Program-made: the position numbers and the translations under genes | Part shown: piece by piece, positions 2,876-38,930 of the stretch | Layout: every line of letters starts with the position of its first letter | Numbering within the stretch: position 1 is the stretch's first letter | Source of the DNA: a virus | Reading direction: 5' to 3' (one strand) | DNA: 64,000 nt | Virus genome (UHGV): UHGV-0277504 | Notes under the pieces: generated by a model | Databases searched by the model: none | The model's input: only the letters and a program-made list of their open reading frames with translations | What the model was told of the DNA's origin: nothing

Positions 2876-3097
2876 ATGAGAAAACAAGTAATGGTATATT
2901 CAAAACTAAATTGTAAAGAATGTGGGAACCACTTTATGGTTCCTAGAAAAAGAGCAAAAAGAAGAGAAGAAGGTCATATCAAAGACTTATATTGTGTAAA
3001 ATGTAAAAAAACAACAAAACATATTGAGGATAACAGAAGTGAAACAGAAAAATTCTGGGATGAATTCCATTCAAATAGAAAATATCAAAAAAATTAA
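2876..3097 (+). CDS. small zinc-ribbon protein
   Basis: CKECGN...CVKCKK four-Cys motif; AAGGATTTGA SD. Confidence 0.55.
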   Translation: MRKQVMVYSKLNCKECGNHFMVPRKRAKRREEGHIKDLYCVKCKKTTKHIEDNRSETEKFWDEFHSNRKYQKN

Positions 3098-3127
3098 TAA
3101 AAAATTTAAAAAAGTTTTAAAATAAAC

Positions 3128-3156
3128 TTGACACAGGGTTATTTTTATGTTATGAT
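3128..3156 (+). promoter_or_regulatory. sigma70-consensus promoter TTGACA-17-(TGt)TATGAT driving non-coding transcript
   Basis: TTGACA 3128-3133, 17-nt spacer, extended -10 TGTTATGAT; shares aaaatttaaaaaagtttt upstream element with promoter at 1847. Confidence 0.7.
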
Positions 3157-3163
3157 ATATGTA

Positions 3164-3981
3164 TCAAATAAAACAAATCCCTTACACAACTGTTTTTTCA
3201 TTACGTTGTTTTCCAGTTCAAACAATAACAGCGTTTGCCTATAACTAATGATTAGACTATAAACAAATCAAGAGGAAATTAGTCTATTCCTCTAATATAA
3301 TTTTAATACAACTAAACATCTGAACATAGTGACTGAATAAGTGAGTGATGTCACTAAGGTGTAAGAATGTCTTAGGAAGCCTACTAAAGTGTGAGAACCT
3401 TTAGAGGTATCCTCAGAGGGATATTTATTCCGAAAGGATTGCTTAGCACTTGGATATAAGGATTATACGGTAGAGAGACTATCAGTGATGAATCACTAGT
3501 CAAGGTCTTAGCGGAATCTTGACTAGTTACGCTACTAAAATCATTTACGTGGTTGGAGCCTAGAAATAGGTTTGATAATGATTGTCTTTCGTACAAGTAG
3601 CACAAACCCACGATAAAGCTAAAGAAAACAAAAAATATATGTTATTTTAATTCTTCACATCGTGTGAAAGTTGGTAAGTAACTGTCCTTACCCCTATACT
3701 GTGGAAACACTCATAAAAGTGGACTATGGCTAGCTACCATATAGAACTTTCTATGACTAGGTTACCTAATAATAATTCTTGTATTTCAGGTTCCCCGTGA
3801 AAAGGGATATGTTTGGATGTTTAGTTGTATTATACAACTAACTTCTCTTTCATTTTAATATTCATATCAATGGTTTTTGACTCCTTTACCATTGATAGAG
3901 AGAAACCCCTTATAAGAACATATTCATTTGTACAAACAAACACCTCCTTATAAAAAACAAAAAAACTTATAAGGGGTTTTT
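3164..3981 (+). ncRNA. candidate large (~820 nt) structured non-coding RNA, class unknown
   Basis: no ORF on the transcribed strand, GC-richer than flanks, many perfect local hairpins (ACTAGTCAAG 3495-3504 / CTTGACTAGT 3519-3528), closing helix AAACCCCTTATAAG 3901-3914 / CTTATAAGGGGTTT 3966-3980 then T-tract. Confidence 0.45.
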
Positions 3982-4085
3982 ACATACACATAACCCTAAT
4001 AACCTGAATATAATTTGCTTGATATTTATATTCAAAAAAAATAAGGTAAGTACTTTTTAAAGGTTTTTGTCTCACCTATACATAA

Positions 4086-18684: not shown

Positions 18685-19263
18685 ATGGCAAATTTATTAC
18701 CAAGTGTGTTTAATAAAGAAACAGGTAAATGGGAAACAATCATTGCTCGACCTGTAGCACAAGAAGTATTTAAAATTATGAAAGAAGATTATTTAAGAAG
18801 TAAAGGTGAAATTGGATATATTTTTGTTTCACATGATGAAGGAGATATGCCTGTAAACCTAGTATTATTCTATGATACTTCTAAAACAGGAACTGAAATA
18901 GTAGATAACCCTGAACGTGTTAAAGAAAATATTAAGTTTAATCTAGACCAATACCTATTAACTAAAAATAATAATGCTAAGCAATTCCGTATATCAGAAT
19001 TCAGACAAAGAATTGAAGATTTACATTTAGTTGATATTGATTCTGAATTCTATGTAGAAGTTATAGATACTGAAGGAGAGAAACACGTTATACCTTCAAC
19101 AAAAGCATTAACAAATAACTTTGAAATCACAAACGCTCTCTTAGAGGCAGGGAATGAAATTAAAGTTAAATATTTCTACAATGGTAATCCTATAGATGAC
19201 TTCATGTTAGATAAGAAAGTAACAGAAGAAAATAGAGATAGATACCCTAGTGAATCACAATAA
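18685..19263 (+). CDS. hypothetical protein
   Basis: ORF track; AAGGGGA SD. Confidence 0.55.
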   Translation: MANLLPSVFNKETGKWETIIARPVAQEVFKIMKEDYLRSKGEIGYIFVSHDEGDMPVNLVLFYDTSKTGTEIVDNPERVKENIKFNLDQYLLTKNNNAKQFRISEFRQRIEDLHLVDIDSEFYVEVIDTEGEKHVIPSTKALTNNFEITNALLEAGNEIKVKYFYNGNPIDDFMLDKKVTEENRDRYPSESQ

Positions 19264-19286
19264 TAAATTATTTTTTTAAAATAAAC

Positions 19287-19315
19287 TTGTAAAAATAACA
19301 AATGTATGTTATAAT
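19287..19315 (+). promoter_or_regulatory. promoter TTGTAA-17-TATAAT
   Basis: drives ORF-free structured region. Confidence 0.5.
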
Positions 19316-19321
19316 GTGATT

Positions 19322-19670
19322 ATCAGTATCCTAACACCTCTTAATAATGTGAAACACAGGGTGCAGTTTTTACTTAAAACCTTTTAAGGTTTGACTTACT
19401 AGAGAGTACAGTAAGTTGCTTGCATATTGGCTTTGTAAATATGTGTTGGTTCCGACATGAAACTTCTTCATTGTCCGTACTCTATTGACCTATCTACCAT
19501 GTTGTAGAAAAGGACTACATTAACGTTAATAGAAAATGACCTTAAACCTGCAATTACTTATCATAGGAAAACTATGATAAGTCCCTGCTATATAGGTATA
19601 CTTTAATCAATGTAACCTAGGGACATACGATTGAGTATACTATTATATAGTATACATTGCAGGTTTTTTA
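19322..19670 (+). ncRNA. candidate ~350-nt structured non-coding RNA
   Basis: no ORF, GC-richer, perfect hairpins TTATCATAG/CTATGATAA (19558-19580), GTATACTAT/ATAGTATAC, GTCCCT/AGGGAC, closing helix CCTGCAAT (19547-19554)/ATTGCAGG (19656-19663) + T6. Confidence 0.4.
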
Positions 19671-19719
19671 TATAATTAATGTTATATTATCTAGTGTAAG
19701 AAAAAATATACGATAAGGG

Positions 19720-20010
19720 ATGAATAACAACATGGCAAAAAAACTAATAGCTTACAACAAACAAGGTGAGAAATTAGCAACAGGAGAACCAGTAGAATCA
19801 GGTAAAGCAACAGTACAATTAACAGGATTAACACCAGAAACTACTTATGCTAAAGGTGATTACCAAGTAGCAATTGATGTAGATGGTCGTGAAGGTAACA
19901 AAGTAGACGTACCTGAGTTTACAACACAAGCTACACCAGTAGCGGAGCCTGAAAATGTAGAAGCTGGAGAAACAACAGATACTACAGCTGACATTTCAGC
20001 AGATGTATAA
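19720..20010 (+). CDS. small Ig-like/FN3-like domain protein (paralog of 18318..18665)
   Basis: see paralog. Confidence 0.5.
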   Translation: MNNNMAKKLIAYNKQGEKLATGEPVESGKATVQLTGLTPETTYAKGDYQVAIDVDGREGNKVDVPEFTTQATPVAEPENVEAGETTDTTADISADV

Positions 20011-21945: not shown

Positions 21946-21976
21946 AAAGCAAGAGTTTTTATCTCTTGCTTTTTAA
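21946..21976. terminator. bidirectional rho-independent terminator at convergence of + and - blocks
   Basis: AAAAGCAAGAG-tttttat-CTCTTGCTTTTT, A-tract on one side and T-tract on the other. Confidence 0.7.
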
Positions 21977-23437
21977 ATTATCTATTTTATTTTTCAATAT
22001 ATCTATTTCTTTTTGATAATCTCTTATTTCAAATTCATAAGCTTCATATTCTATCTGATTTAATTTTTTTAATTTATTTACATATTCTCTTACAATTTTT
22101 TTATTTAATTTAGATTCTATAGATATTTCTTTTAAAGTTAAATTTTTTTCATATAATTTTTTAACTAATAAAATATTATCTATATCATAAAAAGAATTTT
22201 TAAAAACGTTAAACCAATTAACATTAGGATTATATAAAGAGGAATTCTTAATACTAGTTTTAATGTATTCAAAGTCAGAAAGCTCAGCATTTATTTCTAT
22301 ATAGTTAATACCATTATTAATAACCGCTTCTTTTTTCTCTTTATCTACTCTTTGTTGTTCTTCTAAAGTTAGTTTAAATCTAGCACCTTCTCTTAACTCT
22401 TTATAATGTTGAGCACCATGAACTTCTATCACACAATTTAAATTTGGTAAATAGAAATCATACCTTCTTCTTTTTAAGAAATCAAAAGTTTTTTCTTGTA
22501 TATAAAAAATACCTAATTCATCTAAGTAAGCTTTAACGACTTTTTCTGGATAACTTCTTTTTATATTAAATTTACTTTTGTTTTCTTTATTTTTACTTTT
22601 TAATTCCGCACAATAACCACAATTTTTTTGTACTCCATTTAAAAAATGGTCTACTCTAACCTTCTTAACTGTACCGCAAGTTAAACACTTAACTTTAAAC
22701 ATATTTCTTGTATTTATAGTACCATCCTTATTTATAAACTCTTCATTAAAATAATCAACTATCTCATAGTTATTATTTACTTCACCTATTAAATTTTTAT
22801 TAGCATCAGAATCTTTATTAGCTAAATAAGATATATTACAAGTAAAGAAATTATACTCATTATATAATCTATTTTTATTATCATGTTCTAATCTTATATA
22901 ACCAATTTCTTTACCTTTATTATTGTACTTAGTAAAATAGTCTAAGATAGTGACGTAACCCTTATAGTTATTAAATTCAAAGTAAACATCACAACCAATA
23001 CTATTTTTTAAATCTACTTTACCATTATTTTTTAGCGGTAAACTTTCATAATACATCTTTCTTTTAGTTGATTCTTTACTGTGTTTTAATTTATCACCTA
23101 CTATACTTTTAAGTGATACATTTAAAAAACTTTCTTTATTTATAACATAATAGTTATTATCATACTTTAATTTTAAACGAGCTTTTTTATTATCTTTAGT
23201 ACTAGGTAAATATTCTTCTATTACTATATAACCTTTAACACTTATATACTCAAAAGGAACTTCTGTATTATTACATTTTTTAAAATCATATACTTCTTTT
23301 CCTGATGGCTGTGTTTTAGTAGGTACATTAGTTAAGTCTATGTAACAAGGTTTATTATTTTTATATACTTTAATTATTTTATCCATTAAATATTTCTCCT
23401 TACTATTTTTTATCCTAGGTACACTATAATATAACAA
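21959..23437 (-). CDS. large DNA-binding protein with DUF559/Vsr-like PD-(D/E)xK-type motif and zinc-ribbon; possible homing-endonuclease-like
   Basis: N-terminal tandem GY.I....Y repeats; CLTCG...CGYC; FDFLKRRRYDFYLPNLNCVIEVHGAQHY resembles DUF559/Vsr-like core; AAGGAGA SD. Confidence 0.45.
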   Translation of the reverse strand: MLYYSVPRIKNSKEKYLMDKIIKVYKNNKPCYIDLTNVPTKTQPSGKEVYDFKKCNNTEVPFEYISVKGYIVIEEYLPSTKDNKKARLKLKYDNNYYVINKESFLNVSLKSIVGDKLKHSKESTKRKMYYESLPLKNNGKVDLKNSIGCDVYFEFNNYKGYVTILDYFTKYNNKGKEIGYIRLEHDNKNRLYNEYNFFTCNISYLANKDSDANKNLIGEVNNNYEIVDYFNEEFINKDGTINTRNMFKVKCLTCGTVKKVRVDHFLNGVQKNCGYCAELKSKNKENKSKFNIKRSYPEKVVKAYLDELGIFYIQEKTFDFLKRRRYDFYLPNLNCVIEVHGAQHYKELREGARFKLTLEEQQRVDKEKKEAVINNGINYIEINAELSDFEYIKTSIKNSSLYNPNVNWFNVFKNSFYDIDNILLVKKLYEKNLTLKEISIESKLNKKIVREYVNKLKKLNQIEYEAYEFEIRDYQKEIDILKNKIDNLKSKR

Positions 23438-37549: not shown

Positions 37550-37958
37550 TGTTTATATCTCCTTTACTATCACATACATTCATGTAAATCAATGACATTG
37601 ACATATCTTCTTGTACTAAATACAAACATTTAGTCTTAAATTCATCTTGGTTATTTGTAAGAATTTCATTAATACTTCTATTACGGTGTATAGTAGAACA
37701 AACTTCTCCTGAATAAGTATTATAATATAATTCTAATATAACTTCTAACTTTGTTCCTTCAGTAATTTCTTCTTCAATCTCTACAGATATGTTACTATCT
37801 ATATTAAAGCAACCACTAACTGATATGTCTCCAAACATATCAAAACTAACTATATCTCCAAAATTATTTTTATAATCTTTTGAAGTTATATTATTTTCTT
37901 TTGCCCATTTAATTAGTTCATCTAAACTCATTGTAATTTCTTTTTTAATTTTAACCAC
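37542..37958 (-). CDS. hypothetical protein (paralog)
   Basis: ORF track. Confidence 0.5.
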   Translation of the reverse strand: MVKIKKEITMSLDELIKWAKENNITSKDYKNNFGDIVSFDMFGDISVSGCFNIDSNISVEIEEEITEGTKLEVILELYYNTYSGEVCSTIHRNRSINEILTNNQDEFKTKCLYLVQEDMSMSLIYMNVCDSKGDINND

Positions 37959-37982
37959 GGGTTATACCTCCTATATTTTTTA

Positions 37983-38159
37983 TTACCAACTTACTCTTTC
38001 TAATCGTTTTTGATAATATGGTAACTCATCATAGAATTCTCTAGCTTCTGTCTTCCAATAAAATCTTTTACCGTGTGACTTACCTTCATCATCAATCCAA
38101 ATTACATTCCATTCACTCATACTAAATGTATCTGTTAATTCTTTAATAATACCAAACAT
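37983..38159 (-). CDS. small 58-aa protein
   Basis: AAAGAGGTG SD; promoter just upstream. Confidence 0.35.
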   Translation of the reverse strand: MFGIIKELTDTFSMSEWNVIWIDDEGKSHGKRFYWKTEAREFYDELPYYQKRLERVSW

Positions 38160-38199
38160 TTTATTAACACCTCTTTATTAAGTTTTTGTTGTTAAGTTT

Positions 38200-38228
38200 A
38201 TTATAATATTAATATTGATAGATGTCAA
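38200..38228 (-). promoter_or_regulatory. sigma70-consensus promoter TTGACA-17-TATAAT (minus)
   Basis: rc. Confidence 0.65.
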
Positions 38229-38274
38229 CACTTTCTATAAATTTCTTTAAATTTTTGAAAAAATAAGAGTTATT

Positions 38275-38478
38275 TTAATCCTTCTTTTTAAACTTTAAAG
38301 TCACTACATCTCTAAAATGATTATTTCTTGTATGCGTTTCTGAAAGTTTATAATTAGTTATCATTTCAATAACTTCATAATCTACTAGGTTCAGACGAGA
38401 TATATGAATATTAGTTTCATCTTTTCCGTCAAATAATCTTTTTAATATTTTTATTGTTGGTTGCTCAAAGTTTTTCAC
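38275..38478 (-). CDS. hypothetical protein
   Basis: ORF track. Confidence 0.45.
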   Translation of the reverse strand: MKNFEQPTIKILKRLFDGKDETNIHISRLNLVDYEVIEMITNYKLSETHTRNNHFRDVVTLKFKKKD

Positions 38479-38531
38479 CTTTTAAAACCTCTTTCTTTTG
38501 ATAATTGATTTAAAATTCTATTTATAGTTTA

Positions 38532-38930
38532 TTAATGTTTCACCACTGGATAATGAATATCTTTTATTTTTAACGAGCATATACTGTAATAAAAATCACC
38601 ATTACCTGCATCTGCATAACATTCACCTTGTGCTATAGGGTTTTGGTTATGATATAAAACAACAGTAGCCAGACTTTCTGATTCAACACTCCATGTATCA
38701 AACTTTTGTTGTTCTCTCTCATTCTCTATTTTCACATTTGTAATAACTGCATCTAGTTTTACATTAGTCCATTCTCCACCAGCACTTGCACAACAATCTT
38801 GTTCACTTTCCACTATTTCTACAAGAGTGCCATCATCTAAAGTCAATGTTTTATCAGTCCATTCCTTGACTTTTTTATATAACAATTGTTTTTTTATTTC
38901 CTTAAATTCTTTATAATTAATTTTATACAT
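38532..38930 (-). CDS. hypothetical protein
   Basis: ORF track. Confidence 0.5.
   Translation of the reverse strand: MYKINYKEFKEIKKQLLYKKVKEWTDKTLTLDDGTLVEIVESEQDCCASAGGEWTNVKLDAVITNVKIENEREQQKFDTWSVESESLATVVLYHNQNPIAQGECYADAGNGDFYYSICSLKIKDIHYPVVKH

Follow-up and report, generated by a model that had tools for sequence, protein, structure and literature searches.

What does a phage keep in several hundred nucleotides (nt) that encode no protein? The question is raised by positions 19264-19719 of the DNA analysed here, a viral stretch of 64,000 nt (UHGV-0277504) that is referred to below as the window. The window is Sepunavirus DNA, and this gap of 456 nt is 100% identical in the Staphylococcus phages Quidividi, Twillingate, and Terranova. 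The original prediction, made from the sequence alone, had placed a stand-alone structured RNA in the gap. Our analysis confirmed that the stretch, which belongs to a Staphylococcus epidermidis phage, is a genuine gene for a non-coding RNA and is strongly conserved; we consider it highly probable that this gene is both structured and stand-alone. The prediction is borne out by a promoter and a terminator of its own in every relative, by compensatory changes in the stems, and by modules that are common to the RNA and a transcription unit of phage K.

The ORF-free unit and its conservation

The predicted promoter-to-terminator unit occupies 19287-19669 on the plus strand and would yield an RNA of about 348 nt (~19322 to 19669). 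As had been claimed for about 350 nt of it, the gap lacks any plus-strand open reading frame (ORF) of at least 25 amino acids (aa); its single ORF (33 aa) lies on the minus strand at 19370-19471. The folding energy of the RNA corresponds to z = -3.97, and none of 100 shuffled sequences folded equally well. The GC content of 19300-19600 (0.34-0.345) is higher than upstream (0.26-0.30), but not higher than in the downstream gene (0.35-0.40), so the claim that it exceeds the flanks holds on one side only. The two flanking immunoglobulin (Ig)-like genes are paralogues, as stated in the original prediction (41% identity, E 4e-18), but the RNA element does not lie directly between them, since a 192-aa gene sits between the first Ig-like gene and the element. 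Two promoter sequences are relevant to the unit:

19287-19315, plus strand: sigma-A type promoter, TTGTAA-17-(TG)TTATAAT, with 10 of 12 consensus matches plus an upstream TG
19680-19688, plus strand: possible extended -10 promoter TGTTATATT for the downstream Ig-like gene, read from the sequence and conserved in Sepunavirus

The first of these, proposed earlier as TTGTAA-17-TATAAT, is preceded by AAACTTG, as are other early promoters of Twortvirinae, and it is kept in the Sepunavirus relatives and in Alsa_2. The same promoter style, AACTTGACA...TGnTATAAT, was also found at 3125-3160 of the window and in phage K. Promoter-like matches are not enriched in the AT-rich window (43 found, 35 expected), and the weight of the assignment is therefore placed on conservation in relatives. 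The consensus promoter scan did not call the element at 19680-19688, and no clear -35 was found after the terminator in Sepunavirus.

The whole gap is present in 20 Sepunavirus records with 93-100% identity. In other Twortvirinae, namely Alsa_1 to Alsa_4 and PG-2021_27, only 19375-19673 matched (89.5-94.6%). In these phages, the RNA comes directly after the transglycosylase gene and has a promoter to itself; a TTGACT promoter and small, unrelated genes lie beyond it. In the Alsa phages, a clear TTGACT-17-TGGTAATAT promoter stands where the window has the 19680-19688 element. A promoter and a terminator belonging to the RNA were thus found in every relative, including the Alsa phages with their different flanking genes. 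The core of the RNA is about 94% identical in the Alsa phages, whereas the adjacent transglycosylase protein is 59% identical between the window phage and Alsa_3. Because of this difference, the RNA would appear to be either much more constrained than its neighbours or recently exchanged.

The same comparison bears on the possibility that the gap holds a degraded protein gene or small ORFs that escaped annotation. The 33-aa minus-strand ORF would be such a candidate, and hypothetical proteins are annotated in Alsa_1 to Alsa_4 and in BE25; the Alsa records list three minus-strand ORFs. In GenBank, two to three small 'hypothetical proteins' are placed on the opposite strand in Alsa_3, Alsa_1, and Alsa_2 (L001, L002, and L005; ~2997-3325). 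However, the boundaries of these ORFs differ among Alsa_1, Alsa_2, and Alsa_3, and the start of the 33-aa ORF changes from MKKFHV to MWELHV through substitutions that are non-conservative for the protein and preserve the stems. No Shine-Dalgarno sequence was seen before the 33-aa ORF. Since the ORF boundaries vary and the ORF start changes non-conservatively while the stems persist, the comparison indicates that the 33-aa ORF is not a protein gene, and the opposite-strand ORFs of the Alsa phages are probably mis-annotations. The homologues thus do not present the region as a decayed gene; the substitutions keep the stems and wreck the small ORF, and a protein-coding origin is hardly credible.

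Known RNA families were searched for as well. Rfam 15 gave no match at the gathering score in the whole window and none at E up to 10 in 19100-19850, so the search suggested in the original prediction assigned no family to the element. ARAGORN detected neither a tRNA nor a transfer-messenger RNA (tmRNA) in the 64-kb window. A group I intron was rejected: the upstream ORF ends with a stop codon at 19263, the downstream Ig-like gene (19720-20010) has its own ribosome-binding site and ATG, and RF00028 was not matched. Among 10 flanking proteins of the window, Pfam recognized only an SLT transglycosylase and no DUF3800 protein.

Modules of the RNA and their counterparts in phage K

As read from the sequences, the RNA is a chain of modules that would fold independently. 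In order, these are a 5' hairpin, a three-hairpin pseudoknot module, a 34-nt hairpin motif, and a branched 3' domain. The predicted features are as follows:

19326-19364, plus strand: 5' hairpin; outer stem GUAUCCU/AGGGUGC, internal loop AA/AAACAC, inner stem CAC/GUG (3 bp), 11-nt loop CUCUUAAUAAU
19377-19392, plus strand: small hairpin AAACCUU-UU-AAGGUUU; AACC-UAUAU-GGUU in Alsa_1, Alsa_3, and PG-2021_27
19394-19416, plus strand: hairpin H-a; stem ACUUAC/GUAAGU, 11-nt loop UAGAGAGUACA, of which AGAGUAC (19403-19409) is the 5' strand of the pseudoknot
19422-19444, plus strand: hairpin H-b; 9-nt loop GGCUUUGUA at 19429-19437
19454-19475, plus strand: hairpin H-c, of variable sequence; GACAUGAA...UUCAUUGUC
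19477-19483, plus strand: 3' strand of the pseudoknot, GUACUCU; 7 bp with AGAGUAC of the H-a loop
19484-19517, plus strand: hairpin motif; helix P1 19489-19491/19511-19513, A, helix P2 UCUAC/GUAGA 19493-19497/19504-19508, loop CAUGUU, AA
19519-19530, plus strand: P3 position; perfect 12-nt palindrome AUUAACGUUAAU (DNA ATTAACGTTAAT), a minimal hairpin or a possible dimerisation site
19544-19669, plus strand: branched 3' domain closed by AAACCUGCAAU/AUUGCAGGUUU (19544-19554/19656-19666), leading into the U-run at 19664-19669; contains a hairpin at 19556-19582

Comparison across relatives revealed compensatory substitutions in the stems. The outer stem of the 5' hairpin is swapped for GGUUACCU/AGGUAACC in Alsa_1, Alsa_3, and PG-2021_27 and for UAACU/AGUUA in phages K and Remus; by eye, the inner stem varies (CAC/GUG, CGC/GCG, AGC/GCU) and the loops are constant. 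This hairpin is absent in Alsa_2. In the alignment of the pseudoknot module (A4), 100% of the H-a cells are paired, the stem being AUGUAC/GUAUGU in K and ACAUAU/GUAUGU in the second copy of Alsa_3, and the H-b stem is 93.6% paired, with four of its six pairs altered on both sides. The GGCUUUGUA loop is identical in the Sepunavirus-type copies except those of PG-2021_1 and PG-2021_23 (GGCUUUAUA), and it is identical in K and in the second copies of the Alsa phages. In H-c, AUGAA/UUCAU is replaced by AUGU.A/.ACAU in Alsa_2 and PG-2021_27, and by GGAUGG/CCAUUC in K. The pseudoknot strand reads AGAGUGC in Alsa_3 and PG-2021_27 (A-U to G.U). The pairing is AGAUAC/GUAUCU in K and UAGAUAC/GUAUCUA in the second copy of Alsa_3, one base having been lost jointly from both strands. 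This pairing was read by hand from the sequences, as the K strand is shifted by one column in the MAFFT alignment. Alsa_1, Alsa_3, and PG-2021_27 carry the module a second time, in a K-like form with the pseudoknot UAGAUAC/GUAUCUA. When IMG/VR was searched for the GGCUUUGUA module, the matches listed were chance matches only, and the module was seen only in Twortvirinae.

Four helices had been named in the original prediction, and all four are present in the sequence, but two of them are not conserved. The hairpin TTATCATAG/CTATGATAA persists with U-A to U-G changes. The closing helix followed by a T-run also holds and can be extended to AAACCTGCAAT/ATTGCAGGTTT; its 11 pairs are intact in nine aligned relatives, the sole exception being an A-to-C change in Alsa_2, and the T-run is kept in them as T6-T9. 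The pairing GTCCCT/AGGGAC is not preserved (GTAATT in SEP1, AGGAAC in most relatives), and GTATACTAT/ATAGTATAC has gone through a 7-nt deletion in PG-2021_1 and 80A. The hairpin at 19556-19582 is kept with a U-A/U-G change, and the interior fold of the 3' domain is otherwise ambiguous. A simple terminator scan did not call the 3' end because the enclosed 'loop' measures 100 nt.

RNA-seq of phage K has shown two abundant RNAs of unknown function, lnc001 and lnc002 (PMC9241854). The former is an early transcript from a promoter upstream of tRNA-Met and was reported as a discrete RNA ending at its own terminator; the latter lies at 37679-38832 (PMC9241854). Direct comparison of the window element with K by blastn gave only 44 nt in common (84%). 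At the level of modules, three are common to the window RNA and the tRNA-Met/lnc001 unit of K: the 5' hairpin (by eye), the pseudoknot module, and the hairpin motif. The order in K is early promoter, homologue of the 5' hairpin, a weak Teg147-like stretch, hairpin motif with P3 (a hairpin that follows the motif), tRNA-like sequence, tRNA-Met, and lnc001, which contains the H-a/H-b/H-c module. The Ig-like protein downstream of the RNA has a counterpart at the same place in K (gp032 against window 19720-20010, 33% identity, E 6e-16). In Silviavirus Remus, the module is missing; the promoter and 5' hairpin come before a degenerate form of the motif, after which stand the tRNA-like sequence and a terminator. 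Since K, Remus, and the window carry different orders and subsets, the genera shuffle a common set of RNA modules, the hairpin motif being the part present in all. On this comparison, the Sepunavirus RNA would be the tRNA-less counterpart of the Kayvirus promoter/motif/tRNA-like/tRNA-Met/lnc001 unit; the window RNA does not lie beside a tRNA-Met from whose 3' end it could be released.

Further details of these loci were noted. The tRNA-like sequence between motif and tRNA-Met is unannotated (K NC_005880, L131, ~2875-2805, minus strand; Remus, L264, 1367-1432); by eye, it has the acceptor UCCUGAG/CUCAGGA and the T-arm GAGGUUCGAGUCCUC, and neither ARAGORN nor the Rfam tRNA model called it. The 3' end of K lnc001 (L131 2133-2269, minus strand) gave a full-length, near-threshold match to DUF3800-I (43.4 bits, cut-off 44.2), and the stretch before the K motif (L131 2938-2997, minus strand) weakly matched the Staphylococcus aureus small RNA Teg147 (41 bits against 56.1), as it did in Remus.

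The claim that the phage encodes at least two such RNAs also stands, as window 3105-3834 is homologous to K 38828-38008, inside lnc002. This second ORF-free unit (3105-3990) starts with a AAACTTGACA...TGTTATGAT promoter, matches K at 3105-3230, 3304-3340, and 3764-3834, and has no Rfam match at the gathering score.

The hairpin motif in other phages

The motif follows the 34-nt consensus P1(3-4 bp)-A-UCURC-C(C)AWGU-GUAGA-AA-P1'. A covariance model built here (R1) finds its sole copy in the window at 19484-19517 (45.5 bits, E 5e-9). As a control, 824 kb of contigs selected with a loose pattern returned six true instances above 34 bits, and about 94 decoy matches were rejected. A strict pattern occurs in at least 120 viral contigs, one copy each, and gave 15 matches in 185,579 bacterial and archaeal species represented by one genome each. 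The motif is phage-specific, its frequency per contig being higher in viral contigs than in bacterial genomes by several orders of magnitude. The scan patterns fix most motif positions, and part of the conservation seen there is a product of the patterns themselves. When the loop was freed in the pattern (TATCTRC-N4-7-GTAGAAAA), nearly all matches were chance matches in coding DNA, which shows that the loop sequence matters. The hosts of the motif are Staphylococcus Twortvirinae, P1/P7, phi3T-like Bacillus phages, Geobacillus phages, Vibrio phages, and many uncultured phages. No Rfam family, at the gathering score or at E up to 10, overlaps the element or the motif copies in 20 other loci. The motif is thus absent from Rfam and crosses phyla (coliphage P1, Bacillus phi3T, Staphylococcus phage K). 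No description of it was found in the literature; a catalogue of 10,006 viral candidate RNAs may hold it and names no such element.

Among 88 distinct instances, 94.9% of the cells pair, and no shuffle reached the observed covariation. Covariation links the base on the 5' side of UAUCU to the one behind AAAA (CC/GG in 55, CU/AG in 25, one exception), and helix P1 differs elsewhere: CUC/GAG in phage P1, GCUG/CAGC and CAC/GUG in a Geobacillus phage, and GCUC/GAGU in phi3T. A second copy in phage HOB 14.1.R1 (HOB) has UCCAC/GUGGA, a compensatory change within P2. The fourth P2 pair is A-U in 53 instances and G.U in 35, from which it follows that the structure exists only on the transcribed strand. 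A stable hairpin, P3 (median -12.6 kcal/mol), begins 0-9 nt (usually 2-6) behind the motif; a U-run comes after P3 in 20 of 97 cases, and P3 has a C-G/G-C/U.G core in 28 of 104 against 3.7 in shuffles. The P3 position of the window holds only the 12-nt palindrome, which keeps AACGU of the K P3 (GGUAACGU...GCGUUAC) and lacks the GCG strand; ACATTAACGTTAATAG at this position is invariant in nine of nine aligned relatives. By analogy with oligomeric GOLLD and ROOL, the RNA might dimerise through an intermolecular duplex of the palindrome. No consistent complement between the motif loop and a downstream sequence, as in a pseudoknot, was found by eye.

A stretch of 31 nt (19487-19517) is 100% identical in the unrelated temperate S. 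epidermidis phages HOB and BE20, where it lies within another promoter-to-terminator unit, in a moron position between lysis genes and integrase. The identity with HOB had raised the suspicion of a type III CRISPR (clustered regularly interspaced short palindromic repeats) spacer. This was rejected, since there are no flanking repeats and the sequence lies in a homologous promoter-to-terminator RNA unit.

In the window, a 492-aa ORF (21959-23437, minus strand) and a 308-aa ORF beside the HOB unit (L010 330-1256) have a zinc-finger-like C..C motif in common and also F(Y/D)FYLP....IE.HG.QHY. By eye they look homing-endonuclease-like; Pfam gave no match for the 492-aa protein.

Another reading is an element that acts or spreads as DNA, whether an origin, a recombination site, or a recently transferred mobile cassette, with the RNA structure being incidental. 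The 94% nucleotide identity next to a protein of about 59% identity, the 31-nt identity in unrelated temperate phages, and the homing-endonuclease-like genes nearby would fit. Yet only the transcribed strand can accommodate the switching between A-U (53) and G.U (35) in P2. All tRNAs seen near the motif point the same way as it does, as do the flanking genes in about 90% of loci. The conserved stretch is moreover bounded by the hairpin just after the promoter on one side and by the terminator on the other, and the homologous modules are abundantly transcribed in K (PMC9241854). We regard the DNA-level explanation as very improbable.

The surroundings of the motif suggest another explanation. 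About 18 of 60 loci have a same-strand tRNA no more than some 250 nt away, in many cases abutting, and in tRNA arrays the motif fills a slot between same-strand tRNAs with a few nt on either side. The motif could then serve as a cassette for processing or recognition, or imitate a tRNA, and the Sepunavirus RNA would be a remnant after tRNA loss. In line with this, a tRNA-like sequence immediately succeeds the motif in K and in Remus, K has tRNA-Met besides, and one contig has the motif 3 nt before a predicted permuted tmRNA; theta ribozymes provide a precedent for small RNAs serving phage tRNAs (PMC10879173). However, the Sepunavirus window has no tRNA and its motif is unchanged, about two thirds of the 60 scanned loci lack a nearby tRNA, and an array has one copy rather than one per junction. 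An HDV (hepatitis delta virus)-like fold does not fit a P1 of 3-4 bp, and no Rfam ribozyme was matched. A tRNA-linked role is accordingly quite unlikely.

Several loci are of interest in their own right. In a 91.6-kb viral contig (L041 12641-13142), a 21-tRNA array finishes with the permuted tmRNA (tag ANDNIYALVA) predicted by ARAGORN, and the motif ends 3 nt ahead of this tmRNA. In another (L060 1925-3115), three units are arranged head to tail as an island of RNA genes: a motif-bearing unit of about 280 nt (homologous to that of HOB/BE20), a short hairpin unit, and a GOLLD RNA scoring 261 bits. Phage phi3T (L386, KY030782) carries the motif (~2495-2530) in a 700-nt ORF-free region upstream of yonK (2229-2944), with an above-threshold DUF3800-VIII RNA at 2623-2688, 100 nt after the motif. 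In Geobacillus phage PK5.1 (L248), two tandem copies (1493-1525 and 1556-1588, with P1 GCUG/CAGC and CAC/GUG) lie in a 600-nt ORF-free region (1216-1827) after RinA-family and helix-turn-helix genes. The sequence ACTTATAGTTTGT.G.CT..CAAAGGTTT is common to phi3T and PK5.1, and a shorter CA(A/G)(A/G)GGTTTTACAC recurs in the staphylococcal HOB and L060 units. In phage P1, the motif lies between pmgF and rlfB with a terminator; in both P1 and BE20, motif and terminator stand at an operon end and face a convergent gene.

Expression, possible roles, and related RNA systems

No study of non-coding RNA was found in the published Sepunavirus work, and expression was assessed from published values for SEP1. 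The 192-aa gene upstream of the gap (gp163) reached 37.6, 160, and 7266 reads per kilobase per million (RPKM) at 5, 15, and 30 min, and the downstream Ig-like gene (gp162) reached 1735, 11154, and 40890 RPKM (PMC11265418, Table S1). The transcript level thus rises 46-fold across the gap at 5 min (PMC11265418), from which we conclude that a promoter inside the gap is active from 5 min. It would be either the RNA promoter with read-through or the possible extended -10 promoter at 19680-19688.

A gene-specific riboswitch or attenuator controlling the Ig-like gene could be considered on these grounds, as this gene follows the RNA in both Sepunavirus and Kayvirus, is highly expressed, and is preceded by a structured RNA and a terminator. 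Against it, the Alsa phages have unrelated small genes with their own promoter at this place, and the motif precedes a wide range of unrelated genes. The modules showed no alternative pairing with the terminator helix, and no Rfam riboswitch was matched at E up to 10. Control of this one gene therefore has very little to recommend it.

The main rival is a cis-acting leader, a processive antiterminator like put of HK022, EAR of B. subtilis, or canT of Tn916. Here the nascent RNA, chiefly the two-hairpin motif, would bind the elongating RNA polymerase so that it reads through its own and other early-region terminators, of which there are many, or resists Rho while no ribosomes cover the transcript. 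The element lies just after a promoter and before terminators, the SEP1 step-up occurs where no clear -35 follows the Sepunavirus terminator, and flanking genes are co-oriented in about 90% of loci. RNA polymerase as target would explain the near-constant sequence across phyla, and the motif occurs in ORF-free stretches (phi3T upstream of yonK, 600 nt in PK5.1), in tRNA arrays, and beside long untranslated RNAs. The proportions also agree, put having two stem-loops in about 70 nt and canT being a complex RNA of 340-450 nt (PMC9378689, PMC11658703). On the other side, motif and terminator face a convergent gene in P1 and BE20, and a strong promoter directly follows the terminator in the Alsa phages. 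There is no Rfam similarity (whether Rfam has an EAR model was unconfirmed), and lnc001 of K is reported as discrete, abundant, and ending at its terminator (PMC9241854). On balance, antitermination is an improbable role, albeit the strongest competitor.

The explanation that we prefer as a whole, and to which we give an even chance, is a stand-alone early RNA gene of about 348 nt with a trans-acting role. The trans-acting, factor-binding mechanism taken by itself is advanced tentatively, with somewhat less confidence. The RNA would be transcribed from the host sigma-A type early promoter, end at the helix plus U-run, and act in trans during early infection as a stable, compact molecule. Its invariant single-stranded loops (C-C-A-W-G-U of the motif and GGCUUUGUA) would be recognition surfaces for a highly conserved partner, and the RNA would serve as a decoy or scaffold that binds this partner, whether a protein or an RNA of the host. 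Because the hairpin sequence is constant across phyla, a universal host target is suggested rather than a fast-evolving phage protein. An action in trans is favoured since the motif occurs as self-contained units (slots in tRNA arrays, moron positions, convergent operon ends) and since lnc001 is discrete and abundant.

Several points weigh against this explanation. The nine close relatives vary little and most pairs are invariant, with change on both sides in 4 of 90 predicted pairs. The SEP1 step-up could stem from the possible extended -10 after the terminator, and the high expression of the downstream gene fits terminator read-through, and hence a leader role, equally well. Finally, no protein family is consistently found near the motif; in an all-against-all BLAST of ORFs within 4 kb, the largest cluster comprised 11 of 86 loci and reflects related phages.

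More speculatively, the motif and its downstream hairpin may form an undescribed, phage-specific RNA class with one biochemical job against a universal host machine, a proposal made with reserve. One possible job would be to modify RNA polymerase or Rho directly, which would allow phage RNAs without translation (tRNA arrays, GOLLD, lnc001) to be made to their ends; another would be to act as a decoy for a conserved RNA-directed defence or nuclease. The Sepunavirus RNA may then be an 'ornate' elaboration of the class that self-associates via its palindrome.

Staphylococcal phages of the Herelleviridae are leading therapy candidates, and their most abundant early RNAs (lnc001 and lnc002 of K) have been without known structure, family, or function. 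The present work gives the Sepunavirus RNA an anatomy at the level of modules and a link to lnc001, and it exposes a short hairpin that is nearly invariant from Staphylococcus phages to coliphage P1 and phi3T. With the motif present in genetically tractable phages (P1, phi3T, K), its function is directly testable. A conserved phage RNA targeting a universal host component would, if true, be a new principle of host takeover, and it could explain the clustering of GOLLD, ROOL, and DUF3800-type RNAs with tRNAs in phages.

Among known systems, the repeat hairpin of the Cas12a CRISPR RNA, which we take to be UCUAC-loop-GUAGA-U, presumably has the same 5-bp stem and 4-6 nt loop as the motif. It would differ in that P1 encloses the motif hairpin and that the motif has neither an AAUU 5' handle nor a spacer. 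Hosts such as Staphylococcus and E. coli (P1) are not known to carry Cas12a.

Like the window element, GOLLD and ROOL are phage-borne, ORF-free, and highly structured; they are abundant RNAs of unknown function near tRNAs. One contig also links the motif to GOLLD, its motif unit lying about 130 nt before the apparent GOLLD start and about 640 nt before the Rfam GOLLD match. The window element, however, matches neither RF02032 nor any other Rfam model (E up to 10). GOLLD is several hundred nt longer than ROOL. ROOL itself, with roughly 580 nt (PMC5737381), is longer than the window RNA (348 nt). The DUF3800-I, DUF3800-VIII, drum, and skipping-rope motifs are likewise compact, highly conserved RNAs before intrinsic terminators; they are rarely found in 5' untranslated regions, are not self-cleaving, and have no known function (PMC5737381). 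DUF3800-type RNAs are phage-linked in the present data and co-occur with the motif (DUF3800-VIII in phi3T, DUF3800-I-like at the end of K lnc001), but the window element matches none of these families in sequence or structure.

Theta ribozymes are also small phage-specific RNAs that abut tRNA 3' ends (PMC10879173). A theta/HDV-like or other small ribozyme was rejected for the window element: with a P1 of 3-4 bp and P2 directly after it, the helix order does not permit a nested double pseudoknot, and there was no Rfam match. The put, EAR, and canT RNAs have in common with the element that they are promoter-proximal, structured, and placed before terminators, and put, at about 70 nt with two hairpins, is comparable in make-up to the motif plus P3. 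There was no Rfam match, and some motif copies face convergent genes.

The lnc001 unit of K differs from the window RNA in its arrangement, which is motif, tRNA-like sequence, tRNA-Met, and module, whereas in the window the module precedes the motif and there is no tRNA. Its 3' part is DUF3800-I-like, and the 3' domain of the window RNA has no counterpart in K. The two nevertheless have in common an early sigma-A promoter with AACTTGACA, the 5' hairpin, the hairpin motif, the GGCUUUGUA pseudoknot module, and a downstream Ig-like gene.

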